Of a DNA stretch of 64,000 bases, positions 18,708-48,355 are shown in pieces. Numbering within the stretch: the first letter of the stretch is position 1; every line of letters starts with the position of its first letter. Both the position numbers and the translations under genes were made by a program. Below the pieces are notes generated by a model. The model ran no database searches. It worked only from the letters and a program-made list of their open reading frames with translations, and was not told where the DNA came from. Origin of the DNA: Candidatus Levyibacteriota bacterium (GTDB taxonomy: Bacteria; Patescibacteriota; Microgenomatia; Levybacterales; UBA12049). The stretch lies in NCBI GenBank assembly GCA_016182185.1, contig JACOXU010000001.1, positions 530,915 through 594,914 on the forward strand, given 5' to 3'.

Positions 18708-19268
18708 TTACGGCTTGATTACTAATGATGCGGAAATGACCAAAAAAATCCCGATTGAATTTAAAATAAAGGAGACAATTAAAAACTGATAAGTTTTCAT
18801 CTTGGAAATTCCCATAAGACTTACTCCAATCTCATCAGGGAGAGGCGAGGCAACAATAATTGCTCCAACAACAGGCAAAGTCCAGCTGAAATATTTCGAG
18901 TGAAGTAATTTGGTGAAATGGTGATCCCCGTCGACATGATTATAGATAGAAACTATCTCATCCGTTAGGCTATCTTTGATAAATCTGAAAATTGTAACAT
19001 CACCTACCACTGCTCCCAGTCCGGCAACAAGACCTATTTCAATCGGGTTTAGGCTTTCTGACAAAACAAGAAGTATAATTGCTCCTGTTCCAACTGTAAA
19101 TGTAGAAACAAATAAAATCCCTCCAATAAATGCCCCGAGATAACCCAATGACCCCAGTCCCAGCAAAAAAGAATGGAAGATTTCAAGTCTTGAAATAAAG
19201 ACAGCAAAAGCTACACCAACCCCTGTTAAGATCAAATTTTTATATCGCAGATGAAGTTTATGATTCAT
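18708..19268 (-). CDS. hypothetical polytopic membrane protein
   Basis: 186 aa. Gly-rich TM helices (LGLGSLGYLGAFIGGILFV...). No known motif. Confidence 0.45.
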   Translation of the reverse strand: MNHKLHLRYKNLILTGVGVAFAVFISRLEIFHSFLLGLGSLGYLGAFIGGILFVSTFTVGTGAIILLVLSESLNPIEIGLVAGLGAVVGDVTIFRFIKDSLTDEIVSIYNHVDGDHHFTKLLHSKYFSWTLPVVGAIIVASPLPDEIGVSLMGISKMKTYQFLIVSFILNSIGIFLVISASLVIKP

Positions 19269-40822: not shown

Positions 40823-43192
40823 ATGGAAAAGGGACTAAGCAGTCATGAAGTAAATCAGCTTCTTGCAGTTCATGGAAAGAATGAGATAACAGCGAAAAGA
40901 TCTTTTTCCCCGTTTATTCTTTTTCTGTCTCAATTCCCTTCATTTCTTAATGGCATACTATTCCTAGCTGCAATTTTTTCATTTTTTATCAGTGACGTTT
41001 TAGACGCAGTATTTATCCTGGCAATTCTTCTTCTTAATGGAACCGTAGGTTTTATTCAGGAATATAATGCCGAAAAGTCGCTTGAAAAGCTCAAGAATTA
41101 CGTATTGCCTCTCTCAAGAGTGCTCCGTAATGGAAAAGAAGAGGAAATACCTACTTCAGATATAGTACCGGGTGATATTGTAATTCTTTCCGAAGGAGAT
41201 CGAATTCCTGCAGACGGAGTACTTGTCCATCATGAAGACCTGGAAGTTGATGAATCTATTCTAACGGGTGAATCTCTTCCGGTTGCCAAAGAGCAAAATG
41301 CCGAGGTTTTTGGAGGAACTCTTGTCCTAAAAGGTAAAGGTCATTTGAAAATTCAGAAAACAGGGATGAAGACACATTTTGGCCAAATTGCCGAAACACT
41401 CTCTACTCTTTCTCCCGATAAAACCCCGCTTAATCACCGGCTAAATGTCTTAGGAAAAATAATCTCATTTATTGCCATCCTGGCTGCCTTGTCAATCATT
41501 CCAATTGGCCTTTCGCAAAACAGAGAGCTTTTTCCTTTAATTCTTTTATCTATAAGCATTACGGTTGCGGCAGTTCCACAAAGTCTTCCGACCGTAATTA
41601 CGATTGCACTTGCTATTGGAACAACAAGAATGGCCAAAAAGAATGCGATAGTCAGAAAAATGCATGCTGTTGAAACACTCGGATCGATTCAGGTTTTGTT
41701 GGTTGATAAGACCGGTACGCTGACTGAAAACTCAATGAGAGTGAAAAAATACTGGATTCAGGATAAGAAAAAATTTGAATCTCTCTTGCGCGCCTGTATT
41801 TTTGGTAACACTGCTTCTCTTGCCCAAAAAGGATCGCAGGATAAATATGACATCATAGGAGATAGAACTGACGGTGCTTTGCTTCTTTGGGCAAAAAGTC
41901 ACGCAAAAAATCTTAACACACTTAAAGATGGGGGCGAAATTACTGATGAATTCGTTTTTGATCCGGAACAAAAAACAATAACTACAGTTTGGGAAGAACA
42001 TGGAAAAAAATATGTTTTCGTCAGAGGAGCTCCTGAAGCAATAATCGAAGAAAGCGAATTGTCTGAAAAAGAAAAAACCAAAATAACCAAATTTTATGAA
42101 GACTATGCTTCGAATGGACTTCGTGTCATTGCCTTTGGGGAAAAACTTGAAAAACACAAAGGAAGTGTGAAACGAGATCATTTGGAAAAAAATTTAGACT
42201 TCCTTGGTTTTGTCGGAATTTACGATCCTCCAAGAGATGAAGCAAGAGAAGCAGTGCTTAAGGCAAGAAACGCAGGCATCACAACGATTATGGTAACAGG
42301 GGACAATGAAAAAACAGCTCTTTCTATTGCAAAAGACGTTGGTATCCTTGAAAAAGATGAAGATGTTATTACGGGAGAGGAGCTTGAAAAACTAAATGAT
42401 GATGAAGTAGCCAAAATTATTGACCATGTGAGGGTCTTTGCCAGAAGCAGACCCGAAGATAAACTGCGTCTTGTAACGATTCTAAAGAAAAAGGGGTATG
42501 TTGTCGGCGTTACCGGAGACGGAGTCAATGACTCTCTTGCTCTTAAGAGAGCAGATGTTGGAGTTTCGATGGGACAAACCGGAACAGATGTAGCTAAAGA
42601 AGCCAGTGATATAGTTCTTGCGGATGATAATTTTTCAACTCTTGTATCGGCTGTTGAAGAAGGAAGAATTATTTATCATAACATATTAAAAGCAATCACT
42701 TATCTTCTCTCGGGAAATTTATCAGAACTGTCTCTTATTGTTTTTGCGACACTTTTGGGATTGCCTAGTCCTCTTATACCAACTCAAATATTATGGATCA
42801 ATTTAATAACCGATGGTCTTCCGGCTCTTGCTCTTGCTTCCGATAATAAAGATCCGGATCTTATCAAAGATGGTCCTCGGAATCCTAAAACCCCTATTCT
42901 CTCTAAAAAACGAAGTATATTCATAGCGCTTGTCGGCTTGTCCTTGTCTTTTTTCCTGCTTTCCGTTTTTTATTTAATTATAAATCTGGGAAAATCAGAA
43001 ATGCTAGCCCGAACCGTAGTATTTAATCTTTTGATTTTTTCACATATGGGATTGGCGTTTGTGGTCAGAGGAAAATCACTCTTTAAATTCAATCCTTTTC
43101 TGGTGTGGGGAGTGTTTGGAATAATTATTCTACAGATAATTATTACATTTACTCCGTTTTTTCAAGATATATTTCATTTGGGATTTAAATAG
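40823..43192 (+). CDS. cation-transporting P-type ATPase (type IIA, Ca2+/Mg2+-type)
   Basis: TGES, DKTGTLT (phosphorylation site), TGDN, and GDGVNDSLALKRADVGVSMG motifs. Nine predicted TM helices. The protein ends (…FFQDIFHLGFK*) where the tenth helix of homologs would begin. Confidence 0.9.
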   Translation: MEKGLSSHEVNQLLAVHGKNEITAKRSFSPFILFLSQFPSFLNGILFLAAIFSFFISDVLDAVFILAILLLNGTVGFIQEYNAEKSLEKLKNYVLPLSRVLRNGKEEEIPTSDIVPGDIVILSEGDRIPADGVLVHHEDLEVDESILTGESLPVAKEQNAEVFGGTLVLKGKGHLKIQKTGMKTHFGQIAETLSTLSPDKTPLNHRLNVLGKIISFIAILAALSIIPIGLSQNRELFPLILLSISITVAAVPQSLPTVITIALAIGTTRMAKKNAIVRKMHAVETLGSIQVLLVDKTGTLTENSMRVKKYWIQDKKKFESLLRACIFGNTASLAQKGSQDKYDIIGDRTDGALLLWAKSHAKNLNTLKDGGEITDEFVFDPEQKTITTVWEEHGKKYVFVRGAPEAIIEESELSEKEKTKITKFYEDYASNGLRVIAFGEKLEKHKGSVKRDHLEKNLDFLGFVGIYDPPRDEAREAVLKARNAGITTIMVTGDNEKTALSIAKDVGILEKDEDVITGEELEKLNDDEVAKIIDHVRVFARSRPEDKLRLVTILKKKGYVVGVTGDGVNDSLALKRADVGVSMGQTGTDVAKEASDIVLADDNFSTLVSAVEEGRIIYHNILKAITYLLSGNLSELSLIVFATLLGLPSPLIPTQILWINLITDGLPALALASDNKDPDLIKDGPRNPKTPILSKKRSIFIALVGLSLSFFLLSVFYLIINLGKSEMLARTVVFNLLIFSHMGLAFVVRGKSLFKFNPFLVWGVFGIIILQIIITFTPFFQDIFHLGFK

Positions 43193-43223: not shown

Positions 43224-44003
43224 ATGATTGAATACCAAACGCCAATTAGAAAAACCCCTGATGTCAAAGAAAAAATCCCAGACATGTATGACGTGGCTTG
43301 GCTTTCGGGAATCTTTGAAACAGGAGGATCAATAGGCTTCTCAATTGAAACATGGCCGAATAGACCTAATTATGAATCGGCCTATCCTTATCTTTCTCGC
43401 AATGATTCTCATGATAGGACAACCGTCCTGAAAGATCTTTTTGGTGGTAGAAGTCAAATTCAAAAAATAAATTCATGGAGATGGGAGTTAAAGGGGCCCA
43501 ACGCAATCGAAACTGCGCTTAGCATGGACTTGTTCTCCCCCTCCCGAAGAAGCGTCATTGAGATGTTCAGAGAATTTGACAGAGAAGATTTAATGAGTAA
43601 GAAAGTTAAGCTCACAAAAGAATTTAGACAAAATGGAATCCGCAGAAATCCTGTATGTGAAGATGAATATTTTCGTCTTCTCCAATATCCTGCATTTACG
43701 GCCGGCATATTTGATGCAATCGGAACAGTTGACAATGCGCCCTACGCACCTCTAAGAACCCAGTTTGAAAGCACTAATCAACCCCTTCTTAATGCAATGA
43801 GAGAAAGATTTGGAGGCTCAACTTATATCAGGGTGAAACCGGGAACTCAAGTCAGATTAAGAGAAGCAAAATGGGTCACTGTAAATCCGTCTCTTGAACT
43901 GACATTGGCAGCAGAAAAAAGTCAAGAGTTGCTTGAGTTAATTTCTTCCCATCTTCAGATGAATAGAACAAGAGTTGAAGATGCACTGAATGGATTAAAA
44001 TAG
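43224..44003 (+). CDS. free-standing double-motif LAGLIDADG homing endonuclease
   Basis: Two dodecapeptide motifs: VAWLSGIFETGGSIGF and PAFTAGIFDAIGTVDN (pattern L-[AS]-G-[FI]-[FI]-[DE]-x-x-G-[ST]). Size 259 aa. Not embedded in an intron or intein that I can see. Confidence 0.6.
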   Translation: MIEYQTPIRKTPDVKEKIPDMYDVAWLSGIFETGGSIGFSIETWPNRPNYESAYPYLSRNDSHDRTTVLKDLFGGRSQIQKINSWRWELKGPNAIETALSMDLFSPSRRSVIEMFREFDREDLMSKKVKLTKEFRQNGIRRNPVCEDEYFRLLQYPAFTAGIFDAIGTVDNAPYAPLRTQFESTNQPLLNAMRERFGGSTYIRVKPGTQVRLREAKWVTVNPSLELTLAAEKSQELLELISSHLQMNRTRVEDALNGLK

Positions 44004-44324
44004 TTTGCCACCGAGGGGGGTATCTCTTTCAGGAATTATGAGAATTGCTTTGCCTTCTTCATCCGGAAATCCCAAAGTGAGCACTTCGGAAACTGCCGGA
44101 CCCATTTGAAAGGGAGGAAAATTTACCACACCTGCTACTAATTTTCCTATTAGATCTTCTTTTTTATAATGAGTAAACTGGCCAATTGATTGTTTAATCC
44201 CGATTTCAGAACCAAAATCAATCTTCATTTTGTAAGAGGGTTTTCGAGCGGCAGGGTAATCCTCAACTTCCAGAATCTTGCCGACTCTTATGTCTAACTT
44301 TTTAAAATCATCAATCGTTGTCAT
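43995..44324 (-). CDS. csaA: tRNA-binding protein CsaA/Trbp111 (EMAP/MetRS C-terminal-like OB fold)
   Basis: MTTIDDFKKLDIRVGKILEVEDYPAARKPSYKMKIDFG...IGKLVAGVVNFPP is the tRNA_bind domain signature. Start taken at the Met that begins the domain (the track ORF is 16 codons longer). Confidence 0.75.
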   Translation of the reverse strand: MTTIDDFKKLDIRVGKILEVEDYPAARKPSYKMKIDFGSEIGIKQSIGQFTHYKKEDLIGKLVAGVVNFPPFQMGPAVSEVLTLGFPDEEGKAILIIPERDTPLGGKLF

Positions 44325-44331
44325 AAAAAAA

Positions 44332-44937
44332 TTATACCAGAGGCTCCGTTCCCGGTCTTTTGAAAAATGCAATTACTTCGTCATCTGATCTTTTTATCGA
44401 CTCTACTTCTGAAAAACCGAGTTCCGAAAGTACCTTACCTGTCCAAGTTAGCCTAGCTGCTTCCTCAGGCCCTAACCCTTCTTGGAGTAATTTTTGGAAT
44501 TCCTGGTAATTATCTGAACCCCATTCATTTCCTTCAGTCAAAATCCATTTTGCTTCAAATCTTACGACAGGATAACCCTCATTTTTGAAATGATTTAAGG
44601 CAAAAACCAGAAAATTTCTGGCAAAAAAATCAGGATGCCTTTCTCCGGTTTGTTTTCTGGTGTAAATATCCGCACTAGCAGTTTTTCCATGAACATTTGC
44701 CTGCATGGTAAATGCCGGCTCATCCTCGTCATATATTCTTATCCAAGCGGTGTTGCTTCTTTGAACCATGTCTGCCATAACTTTTCTCCCGGAACCTGTT
44801 TCAATCCTTCCTTTTCTAAAATGTGATTCTTTTTCATGTAGATTTAAGCCGTACTTACCCCGAACAAAAGGATAAGGGACCAACGGACGATTTGATTCCT
44901 GGGGTTTTGAAACTTCCTTTGATTCTTCTCCATCCAT
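44332..44937 (-). CDS. unknown-family protein, paralog A of a three-member local family
   Basis: 201 aa. Shares with 44979..45521 and 46708..47292: YPY[VI]xGKxG near the N-terminus, TGERHPDxFARxFLxFA, and [DP]EEAA+xTWTGKxxxELGFSE[VI]E near the C-terminus. The start codon lies 6 nt after a TATAAT. Confidence 0.5.
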   Translation of the reverse strand: MDGEESKEVSKPQESNRPLVPYPFVRGKYGLNLHEKESHFRKGRIETGSGRKVMADMVQRSNTAWIRIYDEDEPAFTMQANVHGKTASADIYTRKQTGERHPDFFARNFLVFALNHFKNEGYPVVRFEAKWILTEGNEWGSDNYQEFQKLLQEGLGPEEAARLTWTGKVLSELGFSEVESIKRSDDEVIAFFKRPGTEPLV

Positions 44938-44958
44938 GGGGCAATTATATCAGAAGAG
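44938..44958 (-). promoter_or_regulatory. repeated 21-nt promoter element, copy 1 (gene sense CTCTTCTGATATAATTGCCCC, extended -10)
   Basis: Plus-strand ggggcaattatatcagaagag. Near-identical copies at 45561..45582 and 46000..46020. TATAAT is 6 nt from the ATG of paralog A. Confidence 0.5.
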
Positions 44959-44978
44959 CGGAAGGGAATTTAAAAAAT

Positions 44979-45521
44979 TTATCCCTGATCAGGTTTTTTG
45001 AAAACCACCCTTAAACCTCCACTTTCATCTTCTGCCATGCTTTCAATTTCTGTAAATCCGAATTCTCCTGCTAGCCTACCTGTCCACGTAGCTTTAGCAG
45101 CATCTTCAGGATCAATTCCTTTCTTGAGCATTCTTGAGTATTGACTGTAGTTAGTAGAGGCGAATTTATCAAGGCTTGGTATCCAATATGAAGAGTATGT
45201 GTTTATCTCATATCCATTGCTCAAAAAGTATTCATATGCGAAAATTAAAAATCTTCTTGCAAATAAATCCGGGTGTCTTTCTCCCGTTATGTATCTTCGG
45301 GTGTGGACAGCTGCTATAAAAGTGTCTTCAACAACTTTAGCAGACACATGATATCCACTAAATTCTTCATCTTCTATCTCAATTGAATCTCTTCTGATAT
45401 CATAATGCAGAAGACTTCCGGATCCGCCTTTTGTTATGCTCCTTATATTAACAGGTAAGTCTTTAAAAGGGATCCCATACTTACCCTTAACATAAGGATA
45501 ACCAACTTTGGTTTCAACCAT
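44979..45521 (-). CDS. unknown-family protein, paralog B
   Basis: 180 aa. MVETKVGYPYVKGKYG ... GGSGS ... ITGERHPDLFARRFLIFA ... DPEDAAKATWTGRLAGEFGFTEIE ... FKKPD. A proximal TATAAT lies 8 nt before the ATG. Confidence 0.5.
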   Translation of the reverse strand: MVETKVGYPYVKGKYGIPFKDLPVNIRSITKGGSGSLLHYDIRRDSIEIEDEEFSGYHVSAKVVEDTFIAAVHTRRYITGERHPDLFARRFLIFAYEYFLSNGYEINTYSSYWIPSLDKFASTNYSQYSRMLKKGIDPEDAAKATWTGRLAGEFGFTEIESMAEDESGGLRVVFKKPDQG

Positions 45522-45560
45522 AGAGAAGGATTATAGATCCGAAAAGGGGAAATATCAAAT

Positions 45561-45582
45561 CGGGGCAATTATATCAGAAGAG
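45561..45582 (-). promoter_or_regulatory. repeated 21-nt promoter element, copy 2
   Basis: Plus-strand cggggcaattatatcagaagag, between the cupin stop and the paralog B start. Confidence 0.45.
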
Positions 45583-45589
45583 GATTATT

Positions 45590-45970
45590 TTATTCTTTTG
45601 GTTCTAGCTTAATTGCGTTTGCGGAAGTTGTGCCGGGGACATTAAATTCAAATAATTTCATTTCTCCTTGATATTCATATTCTCCTCCATCAGGAATAAC
45701 AAAAAGGCTTCCCACTTTAACCTCGTGAGCAACTCCATTTAAAGTAAACATTCCTGTTCCTTCTCTTACATAATAGCTCCTCGTTGCACCAACCATTCTT
45801 GTTAACGGATGCCTACCATGAACATCGACACTTAAAGCGCTATAGCCTAATCCATCTTCAGGCTTCACATAATGATCGCCTGAAAATCCTTCTCTATCAA
45901 AATGCTCCGTCTTATCAAAAGAGATTTTTCTCGGGTGGGGTATTGACTTAGAACCTTCGGCTTCGCTCAT
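45590..45970 (-). CDS. cupin-domain protein
   Basis: Start taken at Met-13 of the track ORF (MSEAEGS...) because gcTATAATtcattcATG places a -10 box 6 nt upstream. The upstream 12 codons of the track ORF would run through that promoter. The cupin beta-barrel region is VDVHGRHPLTRMVGATRSYYVREGTGMFTLNGVAHEVKVGSLFVIPDG. Confidence 0.55.
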   Translation of the reverse strand: MSEAEGSKSIPHPRKISFDKTEHFDREGFSGDHYVKPEDGLGYSALSVDVHGRHPLTRMVGATRSYYVREGTGMFTLNGVAHEVKVGSLFVIPDGGEYEYQGEMKLFEFNVPGTTSANAIKLEPKE

Positions 45971-45999
45971 GAATGAATTATAGCACAAGCACACAAAAT

Positions 46000-46020
46000 G
46001 AGGCAATTATATCAGAAGAA
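46000..46020 (-). promoter_or_regulatory. repeated 21-nt promoter element, copy 3
   Basis: Plus-strand gaggcaattatatcagaagaa, immediately after the toxin gene stop. Confidence 0.45.
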
Positions 46021-46383
46021 TTATCTATTTTTGGCTCCTCTTAGCGATGTATATTTTCCATAAAGTGAATTTCGGGTACTTCTGCTAAGAAGTGCATTGA
46101 GATTTTTGTCCAGCTTCTCAGATGCAAGTTTTTGAGAAACGCCTATAACCCCGCTTTCTTCACTTCTTTCAGCTAATTTTTTGAAATGATTAACATTATA
46201 AGTCACTATTAGTCTTTTCTGTTTACAGGCAATATCATATACCTCTCTGTCTAGGACCCCGCCTTTATTCAAATCCAATTTAATATGCTTTAAATTGTGC
46301 CTACTGTTAGTTCTTGGAAGTAAATTTTTAGAGTACACACCTTCGTCCAGAAGTAGAGAATGCTTATGAGGCTTGCGAGACAT
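46021..46383 (-). CDS. DUF5615-type PIN-like (Mut7-C-like) putative toxin
   Basis: 120 aa. LLLDEGV...LLPRT...HNLKHIKLDL ... KRLIVTYNVNHFKKLA matches the DUF5615 pattern. A 20-nt overlap with the upstream DUF433 gene is typical of TA coupling. Confidence 0.5.
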   Translation of the reverse strand: MSRKPHKHSLLLDEGVYSKNLLPRTNSRHNLKHIKLDLNKGGVLDREVYDIACKQKRLIVTYNVNHFKKLAERSEESGVIGVSQKLASEKLDKNLNALLSRSTRNSLYGKYTSLRGAKNR

Positions 46384-46582
46384 GATTATTTATTATTTGA
46401 GCGCCTTCTTCCACAACTTTTTTAATTATTTCTACGGACAACTGTGGATACAACTCATTAATCGCTTCCGGAGAAAATCCGTCATTGAGTAGAAAAAATA
46501 TTTTTCTTGCAGGAATCCTAGTTCCTTTTATTACAGCTTCTCCTCCAAGTATTTCTCTGTCTGATATTATATATTTCTTCAT
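46364..46582 (-). CDS. DUF433 family putative antitoxin
   Basis: 72 aa. IISDREILGGEAVIKGTRIPARKIFFLLNDGFSPEAINELYPQLSVEIIKKVVE is the DUF433 consensus (ISDPxILGGKPVIKGTRIP...). Confidence 0.7.
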   Translation of the reverse strand: MKKYIISDREILGGEAVIKGTRIPARKIFFLLNDGFSPEAINELYPQLSVEIIKKVVEEGAQIINNHVSQAS

Positions 46583-46617
46583 AATTTTAGTTTATTTTAA
46601 TAAGCGTAGCTTGTCAA
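46583..46617 (-). promoter_or_regulatory. promoter of the DUF433/DUF5615 pair (TTGACA-17 nt-TAAACT, 6 nt before ATG)
   Basis: Gene-sense ccaTTGACAagctacgcttattaaaaTAAACTaaaattATG. A further TGATATAAT sits 35 nt upstream (plus 46636..46644). Confidence 0.4.
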
Positions 46618-46707
46618 TGGACTCAATGGAGTAAGATTATATCATAACTAATCAATAACTAATATGTAGAGCTTTGAATATTATTTTGGGGGAGATTTTG
46701 AAAACAA

Positions 46708-47292
46708 TTAAGTTTGATTTGGTTTTCTAAATATTGCGGTTGTAGCTAGCTCGCCATCGGGAGTTTCTTCAGCTCCTATCTCTTCTAATTTTATTTCAGA
46801 ATAACCAAGCTCCGCAAATAGTTTTCCTGTCCATGTTTCTTTTGCAGCCCTAACAGGATCTCCATGAACTGACATTTCATCCTGAAAAATTTGTAGATTA
46901 ATAGAATTTGGCGCCCAAGTACCTTTGCATCCAGAAATAAAAATATTATTATCTGATAAGTATGTTAAGGCAAAAACAATAAATTTCTTTGCATACATGT
47001 CAGGATGTACATCTTGAGGATTGTCTTCATATACATCTAAAGGAGATGTTCGAGTTCTTATATTGAAATTTACAATTTCACTCACGACTTGAACCGACAT
47101 AAATCTATCAGGATAACCAACATCTCTTACAGAGAGCATATCGCTGCCAACTGTATATTGTAATTCAGATCCAGACCCACCTCTAATAACACCGGTACAT
47201 TTGCCTTTGGTTCTATACCTTTCGATTATTGCCTCAAGAGATATTCCTTTTTTGCCTTCAATATAAGGATAGTTTCCTTCAACTTCAACCAT
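46708..47292 (-). CDS. unknown-family protein, paralog C
   Basis: 194 aa. MVEVEGNYPYIEGKKG ... GGSGS ... QDVHPDMYAKKFIVFA ... DPVRAAKETWTGKLFAELGYSEIK ... FRKPN. Confidence 0.5.
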   Translation of the reverse strand: MVEVEGNYPYIEGKKGISLEAIIERYRTKGKCTGVIRGGSGSELQYTVGSDMLSVRDVGYPDRFMSVQVVSEIVNFNIRTRTSPLDVYEDNPQDVHPDMYAKKFIVFALTYLSDNNIFISGCKGTWAPNSINLQIFQDEMSVHGDPVRAAKETWTGKLFAELGYSEIKLEEIGAEETPDGELATTAIFRKPNQT

Positions 47293-47330
47293 AGACGAGA
47301 ATTATACTCTTTGGATTTTGTTATATCAAC
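47293..47330 (-). promoter_or_regulatory. promoter of paralog C (TTGATA-17 nt-TATAAT, 8 nt before ATG); the -35 is formed by the last codons of ruvB
   Basis: Gene-sense TTGATAtaacaaaatccaaagagTATAATtctcgtctATG. The TTGATA spans the ruvB codons Leu-Ile-stop. Confidence 0.5.
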
Positions 47331-48355
47331 TTTTGTTGTTTTTTGGGTTCTTCGGGATGCTTCTTTCCTAAATGTTCGTAGGCGGAGGGAGTGGCGACTC
47401 TTCCCCTACTCGTTCTTTTTATAAACCCAATTTGTAAAAGATACGGCTCTACGACTTCTTCAAGTGTTCCAGTATCCTCTGATATGGTTGATGCAATAGT
47501 TTCAAGTCCCACTGGCCCACCGCTATGCTTGTCAATTATTGCCTTTAAGAACCTTCGATCAGAACTATCAAGCCCCATCTCGTCTACCTCAAGCATCTTG
47601 AGCGCTTCATCTACTAATTCTTTGGTAATTTTTCCCTCCCCTTTTACCTGTGCAAAATCGCGTGCCCTCTTTAATAATTTTAAACCAATTCGGGGAGTCC
47701 CTCTGGCTCTTTTGGCAATTTGCTTGACACTCTCTTTATCAATTGCGACTTTAAGTTTTTTGGCGGCATTTTCTATAATAGTTTCTAAATCCTTCGGATC
47801 ATAAAAATTCAAACGGTGAACTACGCCAAAGCGGTCCCTAAGGGGCGCAGACATTAGCCCGATCCGTGTAGTTGCTCCGATGATGGTAAATTGGGGCAAA
47901 TCCAATCTTAAAGTTCGGGCGGAAGGCCCTTTTCCCAGAACTATGTCTAGCGCATAATCTTCCATGGCAGGATAAAGCGTCTCCTCAACTACTTTATTTA
48001 ACCTGTGAATTTCATCGATAAATAATATATCTCCTTTTTCAAGATTGGTTAGAATCGAAGCAAGATCCCCCGCTCGCTCAATCGCAGGGCCTGAGGTCAC
48101 TCTGATATTTGCTCCCATTTGCTTGGCAACCAGATGAGAAAGCGTGGTCTTCCCCAGTCCCGGAGGTCCATACAAAAGTATATGTTCTATCGCCTCTTTT
48201 CTTTTCTTCGCCGCATTTATGGCAATATGAAGAGATTCTTTTACCTGCGTTTGTCCCAGAAATCCAGTCCAGTCCGAAACCCGAAGAGAAGTAAAGAGTA
48301 CCTGTTCTTCTGGTGTTTCCTGTTCGTCAAGTTTAATCTGTTTCTTATTTGCCAT
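47321..48355 (-). CDS. ruvB: Holliday junction branch-migration helicase RuvB
   Basis: [22 protein letters not shown] Walker A. An AAA+ sensor region. A C-terminal winged helix. Confidence 0.95.

Follow-up and report, generated by a model that had tools for sequence, protein, structure and literature searches.

The minus strand of a 64,000-nt stretch of DNA from a Candidatus Levybacteria metagenome-assembled genome (contig JACOXU010000001.1; the complete stretch is referred to as the window) raises the question why three divergent copies of one protein gene, here termed A, B and C, are found together with a putative toxin-antitoxin (TA) pair and a probable cupin gene directly behind ruvB. Six small co-oriented open reading frames (ORFs) are located there (44332-47292), flanked by a csaA-like tRNA-binding-domain gene on one side and by ruvB on the other, at the positions given in an initial annotation, which had read them as a polymorphic toxin/immunity locus or phage-defence islet and had proposed an undescribed multi-gene system. 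The reading favoured here, to which a probability of roughly 60 % is assigned, is that an undescribed protein family of GNAT-derived fold has expanded by paralogs within a hyperplastic interval following ruvCAB, into which the TA pair and the cupin gene were inserted independently. On this reading, the six genes share a variable region without forming one functional system, and the proposal of such a system is abandoned.

The protein family of A, B and C

In the genome annotation, the three genes carry the locus tags HYT08_03085 (A), HYT08_03090 (B) and HYT08_03110 (C) and are described as coding for hypothetical proteins:

44332..44937, minus strand: paralog A (P0002), 201 aa, A-type, with N-terminal extension
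44979..45521, minus strand: paralog B (P0001), 180 aa
46708..47292, minus strand: paralog C (P0003), 194 aa, helical-insert (KGKCTG) subfamily with long β4-α3 loop

Full-length alignment corroborated the previously noted homology at low identity (A-B 37 %, A-C 30 %, B-C 32 %) and yielded 37 invariant columns, which include YP..GK.G, GSG, HPD..A..F, W, S.N and AA..TWTG; C is the most divergent of the three paralogs. The observation that all three proteins begin with MVE does not apply to A, which possesses a 14-residue N-terminal extension kept in A-type orthologs, but the YP..GK.G motif is indeed common to all. When HPDx[FY]AxxF...AxxTWT was turned into a degenerate DNA pattern, exactly A, B and C were matched in the 64 kb (0.00 matches expected by chance), and no fourth copy was detected when all window ORFs of at least 60 aa were searched with the family hidden Markov model (HMM).

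In agreement with the initial annotation, which could not place the family in any known domain, none of the three proteins matched a Pfam, NCBIfam, PADLOC or PHROG model. Scanning 110 diverse members against Pfam gave no match at E ≤ 0.01 suggesting a family assignment, and a sequence search of the PDB with the family profile returned noise only, with nothing meaningful at E ≤ 10. Word-index homolog searches had recovered just 26 and 19 proteins, implying a tiny family; this is contradicted by an exhaustive profile search, which at E ≤ 1e-3 recovered at least 1,224 representatives of 50 %-identity clusters, of which 458 remain at ≤ 1e-10 and 80 at ≤ 1e-30. With few exceptions, the 150 best members are single-domain proteins of 170-200 aa that display YPYxxGxxGIPF a few residues after the initial Met. 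A, B and C hence belong to a sizeable protein family, which is undescribed in the libraries searched (Pfam-A, NCBIfam, PHROGs, PADLOC) and has no characterised homolog. The labelled sources of its members are only Candidatus Levybacteria and Patescibacteria (candidate phyla radiation, CPR).

Across a 110-member alignment with a mean column identity of 22 %, almost no variation was seen at Y8, P9, G16, S34, G35, H83, D85, A88 and F91 (numbering of B) as well as at F99, W113, N124, A142, T145, W146, G155 and F174, essentially all of which are retained in A, B and C. A neighbour-joining tree resolved A-type and B-type orthologous groups, each spanning several genomes, with C positioned outside of both and beside other long-loop members. 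A, B and C would represent three anciently diverged paralogs of a widespread, probably cytoplasmic protein family of ~180 aa.

AlphaFold2 models were obtained for B (26 sequences; pLDDT 91.4, pTM 0.86) and C (112 sequences; pLDDT 92.8, pTM 0.88). The predicted likeness to GNAT proteins is reproducible, but appears at the level of the fold only, and the α1-α2 helices are absent or reduced in the models of B and C. Motif A of the GNATs (Q/R-x-x-G-x-G/A) represents the pyrophosphate-binding loop between β4 and α3. At this loop, the family consensus reads x-x-R-H-P-D-x-F-A, and C has PQDVHPDMYA, without glycine; likewise, neither an Acetyltransf_* nor any other Pfam profile matched A, B, C or the 110 relatives, and there was no NCBIfam match. 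Since the predicted fold resembles that of GNATs and motif A is absent, the family is viewed as a GNAT-derived variant rather than as a member of the GNATs.

The β4-α3 loop, the end of β5 and the start of α4 line the cofactor/substrate cleft in GNATs, and, judged from GNAT topology, the conserved polar residues of the present family would be placed on these same elements. The invariant Arg/x-His-Pro-Asp loop takes the place of the acetyl-CoA pyrophosphate loop of true GNATs. Where GNATs have their cofactor cleft, a pocket for a small molecule or substrate would most likely be bordered by this loop and further near-invariant residues, namely the N-terminal Tyr-Pro, Ser-Gly, Trp (β5 end), Asn (α4 start) and Thr-Trp. 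These conserved polar loop and pocket residues point to an enzyme or ligand-binding protein of ordinary physiology by which CoA would not be used canonically, probably an enzyme that binds a small molecule and has His-Pro-Asp where GNATs carry the CoA loop. The top structural match was Aquifex aeolicus aq_1966 (PDB 2ARH), which stems from structural genomics and has 10-11 % identity and no sequence-profile match to the family even at E ≤ 10. Literature searches on aq_1966, 2ARH and DUF366 retrieved nothing informative, and since the function of aq_1966 is unknown, none was transferred.

Alternatively, though rather unlikely, the family could represent a non-catalytic GNAT-fold scaffold in the manner of ornithine decarboxylase antizyme or PanZ-type regulators, which binds and regulates another protein and whose paralogs hetero-oligomerise or have different partners. 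This would agree with the absence of the canonical CoA-binding motif, with antizyme and PanZ appearing among the weak structural matches, with the conserved tandem of A and B described below, and with the use of aq_1966, presumably an oligomer, as building block of a designed fusion protein (4zsv). However, when His, Asp, Asn, Ser, Thr and Tyr residues hardly vary among more than 100 sequences with 22 % mean column identity, an active or ligand site is more to be expected than a protein interface, and no conserved partner gene was found.

The variable interval between ruvB and the P-type ATPase

Next to the three paralogs, the following genes and flanks define the locus, the minus-strand order from ruvB being ruvB, C, DUF433-DUF5615, cupin, B, A and csaA:

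47321..48355, minus strand: ruvB, conserved left anchor of the variable interval, in a ruvC-ruvA-ruvB operon
46688..46707, minus strand: conserved 20-nt 3' flank of C, TTGTTTTCAAAATCTCCCCC / TTGYTTTCAAAATCTCCCCC
46364..46582, minus strand: DUF433 gene, 72 aa, putative antitoxin (PF04255, 1.8e-13, 50.6 bits, cutoff 23.6)
46021..46383, minus strand: DUF5615 gene, 120 aa, putative toxin partner (PF18480, 1.8e-8, 34.7 bits, cutoff 23.8)
45590..45970, minus strand: probable cupin gene, 126 aa, ATG at 45970 (mechanical ORF from TTG at 46006, 138 aa)
43995..44324, minus strand: csaA-like tRNA-binding-domain gene, likely ATG start at 44324 (PF01588, 3.7e-12, 46.6 bits)
40823..43192, plus strand: P-type cation ATPase gene, conserved right anchor of the interval

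The locus was compared with relatives comprising homolog-encoding contigs, one GTDB genome and 19 metagenome loci found by DNA pattern (loci numbered with prefix L), the neighbourhoods of which were analysed by ORF calling, HMM detection and all-against-all clustering. Scanning of genome contigs with a tight motif retrieved a single locus, L012. In close relatives, ruvC-ruvA-ruvB is located on one side and the same P-type ATPase gene together with that for ComM on the other, with 1-3 family genes in between and otherwise differing cargo. The ruvB product of the window is 92 % identical to its ortholog in L012, the ruvB orthologs of L002, L012, L013, L022 and L027 match RuvB_N, AAA and WHD_RuvB of Pfam, and ATPase orthologs border the interval in L002, L006, L011, L012, L013, L022 and L031.

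A family gene directly follows ruvB in the window as well as in L013, L022 and L027. In L013 and L022, this single B-type gene is the only one between ruvB and the ATPase gene, and in L027 other cargo is located behind it. The conserved 20-nt 3' flank trails the first ruvB-proximal family gene regardless of paralog type, since it is also found in L013/L022 (B-type) and L027. The interval of L012 and L014 harbours a 479-aa gene, genes for a 2H phosphoesterase, a lipoprotein, an S51 peptidase and a 186-aa membrane protein, an A-type and a B-type gene, and an MBL-fold gene; that of L002 the gene of this membrane protein, one of receiver-like type, one of 107 aa, two family genes and one of 176 aa; and that of L006, L007, L017 and L031 DUF433-DUF5615, HIT, PIN and HicAB genes, three genes of unknown function, an A-type gene and a peptide deformylase gene. 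The initial annotation had suggested comparing the interval in related genomes, and its content between ruvB and the next core gene proved to differ among relatives and to collect TA modules. The tandem of A and B is conserved in the window, L002 and L012/L014, its order from ruvB being B-A in the window versus A-B in L012, and fragmentary tandem copies are present in error-prone L001 and L005. In the latter two (sample ERZ1286166), the genes for ATPase, ComM, RuvB and family proteins are split into many short ORFs by apparent frameshift errors, probably resulting from uncorrected long-read assembly, so that gene fragments at these loci should not be read as pseudogenes.

From this comparison, one copy of the family in Levybacteria would reside directly downstream of ruvCAB, within a hyperplastic ruvB-to-ATPase interval that accumulates small genes. 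The arrangement in the window could then have arisen from duplication or retention of paralogs combined with the independent insertion of a predicted type II TA pair and a cupin gene.

Outside of the Levybacteria lineage, members of the family are solitary and have unrelated, mostly housekeeping neighbours. These are tuf-rpsJ and an Asp/Glu racemase gene (L024), genes for MurT/GatD and an M48 peptidase (L010), a rhomboid gene (L019), the gene of a 1,144-aa exported protein (L008) and, for member P0095 on a 1.14-Mb scaffold, genes for purine synthesis, BacA, Maf, a peptide-chain release factor and FtsEX. Clustering of neighbours revealed no cluster recurring with the family outside of the Levybacteria interval and no conserved partner gene. 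The sole cluster common to distant loci, a GIY-YIG-type small nuclease, was rejected as partner, because its genes are located far from the family gene. These GIY-YIG-type (UPF0213-like) nuclease genes are found on unrelated contigs (L019, 679-975; L020, 3655-3969; L023, 709-1095) and probably represent common mobile genes. In P0095 itself (374 aa; L033, 6001-7125), the family domain is preceded by a segment of 200 aa that contains two HxTx motifs (HITA, HITL) and resembles 2H phosphoesterases by eye; Pfam and PDB searches with this segment were negative. A link of the family to 2H phosphoesterases is tentative; comparison of the N-terminal region of P0095 with an authentic 2H neighbour by BLASTP yielded an E of 0.047. 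In L012, a true 2H phosphoesterase gene (2_5_RNA_ligase2, 1.3e-22) shares the interval with family genes, and fragmentary copies are present in L001 and L005.

The cupin candidate yielded a Cupin_2 match of 3.2e-4 and 20.8 bits, which is under the Pfam threshold of 27.2, and matched cupin_2 isomerases in the PDB with an E of 0.012 (residues 15-108). As the Pfam match is under threshold, the label cupin is retained as probable instead of certain. In L006 and L030, family members also have cupin-like genes nearby, but these are no orthologs of the cupin gene of the window, and an association of the family with cupins was rejected. The csaA-like gene closes the co-oriented run and is missing at this place in the relatives examined, where an MBL-fold gene is found instead. 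A 259-aa ORF on the plus strand (43224-44003) between the ATPase and csaA genes is preceded by TGATATAAT, 6 nt and ATG and shows a weak match to an HNH-endonuclease PHROG (1.4e-5) and a faint one to LAGLIDADG_3; since relatives harbour the MBL-fold gene at this position, the ORF may represent a free-standing homing-endonuclease-like insertion. The gene for a 186-aa multi-pass membrane protein is situated directly upstream of family genes in L002, L011, L012 and L014. Its homolog in the window (18708-19268, minus strand) is 25 kb away and shares only the coding region with L012 (70 % nucleotide identity). In L011 (5148-7784), a large serine recombinase gene (Resolvase/Recombinase/Zn_ribbon_recom) and an HTH_17 gene are located by a shortened (287-aa) ComM/Mg-chelatase gene beside the ATPase gene; this region may be an integrated element interrupting comM. 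An Rfam search of the interval gave no match.

Promoter-like sites and a repeated 18-mer

The most unusual feature of the locus is a ruvB-derived promoter element found at the boundaries of gene units. The respective sites in the window are:

47301..47329, minus strand: promoter-like site of C, TTGATA-17-TATAAT, 11/12 consensus matches
46617-46589, minus strand: promoter-like site of the DUF433 gene, TTGACA-17-TAAACT
46002..46019, minus strand: before the cupin gene, copy 1 (exact) of the 18-mer TCTTCTGATATAATTGCC, which contains an extended -10-like TGnTATAAT
45530..45581, minus strand: 5' region of B, with copy 2 of the 18-mer (45564-45581) followed by TTGATA-17-TATAAT (45558-45530)
44940..44957, minus strand: copy 3 of the 18-mer, ending 2 nt before the ATG of A

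As already recognized in the initial annotation, the promoter of C is built from the final codons of ruvB, its -35 box TTGATA corresponding to the last two sense codons, Leu-Ile (AAG TTG ATA TAA). The -10 box ends 8 nt before the ATG, which suggests a leaderless or near-leaderless mRNA, and a leaderless mRNA is likewise suggested for A by the succession of TATAAT in copy 3, 6 nt and ATG. An arrangement like that of copy 3 is also present before the A-type genes of L011, L012 and L014. The notion of an own promoter for each gene agrees with promoter-like sites before C, DUF433, cupin, B and A, and fails for DUF5615, which lacks a site of its own. The total of 18 promoter-like sites in the region is not clearly above that of shuffled sequences (12.7 ± 4.1). 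Among the 72 genes of at least 80 aa in the window, 24 show a TATAAT-like box whose end is 5-9 nt away from the start codon and only 8 a Shine-Dalgarno-like GGAGG, suggesting that leaderless translation may be widespread in this Levybacteria genome. With start-proximal promoter boxes this common (24/72 genes), an own promoter is the norm here.

The 18-mer TCTTCTGATATAATTGCC has exactly 3 copies in the 64 kb even with 3 mismatches allowed (0.15 expected by chance). With 0-3 mismatches, the element precedes most small genes of the interval in L001, L002, L006, L007, L011, L012, L017, L027 and L031; the copies of the relatives represent 34 unique contexts, all co-oriented with ruvB, and yield the ~20-nt consensus ttCtTCTGaTATAATTGCCcc. 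Two configurations were distinguished: in one, the element abuts the ATG (TATAAT, 6 nt, ATG), implying a leaderless mRNA, and in the other it is followed by TTGATA-N17-TATAAT-N8-ATG. In the window and the relatives examined, the 18-mer was found at gene-unit boundaries only inside the ruvB-to-ATPase interval. The terminal ruvB codons of L013, L022 and L027 (AAG CTG ATA TAA TTGCCC) correspond to the core of the element and are followed by the TTGATA-N17-TATAAT promoter of the second configuration and then the family gene; with this junction, the 60 nt upstream of B in the window align closely. In L013 and L022, the lone family gene is placed between direct copies of CTGATATAATTGCCC, the downstream one of which is an orphan with no gene after it. 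Synonymous sites differ at 50-70 % of positions between these genomes, yet the 18 nt are letter-perfect in many copies, which argues for constraint or homogenisation.

Inverted repeats flanking the region did not exceed the chance level, the 18-mer is non-palindromic and has no stem-loop or terminator beside it, and family genes outside of Levybacteria do not possess the element. Matches to the 18-mer in viral contigs were dismissed as chance level, consisting of 8 single copies inside apparent coding regions, five of them identical in sequence. Each gene unit of the interval would possess its own promoter, be probably leaderless and in most cases start with the ~20-nt ttCtTCTGaTATAATTGCCcc, the core of which is the 3' end of ruvB. 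The copies of this element probably provided either homology for recombination or a regulatory site common to the units.

A more far-reaching reading, and an unlikely one, regards the interval as a true site-specific cassette array, integron-like or similar to the promoter-early stem-loop (PeSL) cassettes, with the ~20-nt motif as recombination site at the 3' end of ruvB and A, B and C as mobile cargo. Identity of the motif across unrelated genes and across genomes with near-saturated synonymous sites, its occurrence at most unit boundaries and always in the orientation of ruvB, the direct CTGATATAATTGCCC copies around the lone gene of L013/L022 with one of them orphaned, and the gene order B-A in the window versus A-B in L012 are all consistent with such an array. 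Against these stand the lack of an encoded integrase or recombinase in the interval of the window and 8 relatives, the non-palindromic motif without adjacent stem-loop, and the fact that the motif core is a good extended -10 box, such boxes being common 5-9 nt before starts in this genome; moreover, the 186-aa membrane-protein gene of the window, located elsewhere, as well as family genes outside of Levybacteria lack the motif.

Weighing of the readings and comparison with known systems

The DUF433 and DUF5615 genes, both above their Pfam cutoffs and sharing a 20-nt overlap with the DUF433 gene first, substantiate the previously assigned pair: two small, co-oriented, overlapping genes matching both families are present at 46021-46582. 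Such a two-gene module is taken by us to be a type II TA system as predicted by comparative genomics. A literature search found no paper naming both DUF433 and DUF5615 and none of experimental nature, and the DUF5615 protein has no relative in the PDB by sequence. The pair of the window is also found elsewhere in the interval of L006, L007 and L017, where no family gene is adjacent, and 26 of the 27 distinct family genes in the fetched loci do not have the pair beside them. Since pair and family genes occur independently, A, B, C and the cupin are placed outside of the TA module.

Orthologs of A and B among the window, L012 and L013 are 68-73 % identical, and their ratios of nonsynonymous to synonymous substitutions (dN/dS) of 0.16-0.28 indicate purifying selection (A versus its L012 ortholog: 73 % identity, dN/dS 0.16); ruvB, ruvA and the ATPase gene have a dN/dS of 0.04-0.06 with saturated dS. 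Searches for the family by tblastn in 50,697 phage and 72,556 plasmid records and for its gene pattern in 2.9 million viral contigs gave no match, and an association with phages was rejected on account of this absence. None of the seven cluster proteins matched a family of PADLOC-DB v2 at E ≤ 1. No multidomain toxin with a trafficking or pre-toxin domain is encoded among all genes between 43.2 and 49.5 kb or in the intervals of relatives. The family also does not behave like toxin-restricted, rapidly diversifying immunity genes, since its members are found in unrelated contexts, evolve at the above dN/dS and form stable orthologous groups.

The only link to polymorphic toxins is provided by a 5,274-aa protein (P0116/P0171; L032, 8001-23825) of a GC-rich organism, which has an N-terminal signal/TM-like segment, a Pretoxin-HINT domain (PF07591, 5.8e-9) and six modules homologous to β3-β7, the C-terminal half of the family (hhalign probability 98.4 %, E 6.6e-15; i-E of the single modules between 1e-7 and 1e-12). 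Absent from them are the N-terminal half, the HPD loop and the tryptophan of TWTG; no same-strand gene follows the giant ORF, and a homolog search seeded with the modules retrieved nothing. Further constituents of P0116 are Cys-rich DPDGDGxGWE repeats, FN3-like regions, helical linkers between the half-domains and six further C-terminal repeats of a 'GRGLNLT' module. Judged from its sequence, this protein indicates that the C-terminal half-domain is older and more widely used; it does not make toxins or immunity factors of the stand-alone proteins.

That the cluster represents a polymorphic toxin/immunity locus or phage-defence islet, with A, B and C as a divergent immunity-like or effector-like array working with the TA pair, is therefore highly unlikely: the tandem of divergent paralogs, the TA modules (DUF433/DUF5615, HicAB, PIN) in the variable interval of several relatives and the sixfold C-terminal half in the secreted Pretoxin-HINT protein are outweighed by the absence of PADLOC matches and of any toxin or secretion gene in the interval, by members that are mostly solitary in housekeeping contexts or, in L013 and L022, alone between ruvB and the ATPase gene, by purifying selection on stable orthologous groups with polar motifs kept in all three copies, by the absence from phage, plasmid and viral collections, by the independence of TA pair and family genes, and by the missing N-terminal half, HPD loop and subsequent same-strand immunity gene in P0116. 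The initial annotation had itself named, as a finding that would speak against it, a common family found once per genome elsewhere, and this is largely what was observed. Tandem divergent paralogs beside a TA pair are thus insufficient to call a toxin/immunity or defence system.

Several findings also weigh against the favoured paralog expansion in a hyperplastic interval. The dN/dS values of A and B are 3-5 times that of ruvB or the ATPase gene, so that constraint is relaxed relative to core genes; the designation of the family as CPR-wide relies on two genomes that carry a label and, for metagenome contigs that carry none, on their composition and context; the 186-aa membrane-protein gene of the window is located elsewhere and without the 18-mer; P0116 with its six C-terminal half-domains is not accounted for; and the interval collects TA modules, as islands do.

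Beyond the favoured reading, a bolder combination would hold that the family is a new, possibly CPR-specific enzyme class on a GNAT-derived scaffold, in which a catalytic His-Pro-Asp loop was gained for the CoA loop and three specialised isoforms are maintained by a single ultra-small genome, and that at the same time the interval is a chromosomal counterpart of PeSL cassettes, with the promoter derived from the 3' end of ruvB as recombination anchor. Both together are improbable. If true, this anchor would allow Levybacteria to take up and rearrange small leaderless units (family paralogs, TA pairs, cupin, HIT, 2H phosphoesterase and others) and to trade them among each other.

The genomes of CPR/Patescibacteria are tiny, with a large share of genes without known function and many orphan families. 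A family of more than 1,200 clusters with a confident model and sharply conserved polar residues, absent from Pfam and NCBIfam, represents a tractable target for biochemistry, and the maintenance of three isoforms in a genome of roughly 0.6 Mb suggests importance to the cell. The repeated promoter element at the unit boundaries following ruvB hints at a way in which reduced genomes may still exchange accessory genes although no mobile-element machinery is evident.

Among known systems, the GNAT superfamily including the GNAT-like decarboxylases (CurA, GphF) is one of the closest to the family. Polymorphic toxin systems resemble it by the six half-modules in the PT-HINT giant P0116/P0171, but the window does not contain any PT-HINT giant and nothing marks the stand-alone proteins as toxin or immunity factors. 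From integrons, the interval of the window differs by the lack of an integrase and attI and by a repeat of 18-20 nt, which is not a palindromic attC. PeSL cassettes, which offer the closest parallel to the repeated element, are known from modular shuffling in hyperplastic regions of T4-type phages (PMC2839356, PMC4122927). The Levybacteria interval differs from these in being chromosomal rather than phage-borne and in a motif that has no stem-loop terminator and whose core is the end of the housekeeping gene ruvB. It resembles them in that a highly conserved σ70-like promoter element is located at the borders of small genes of mostly unknown function, within a variable region between core genes, the content and order of which differ between close relatives.

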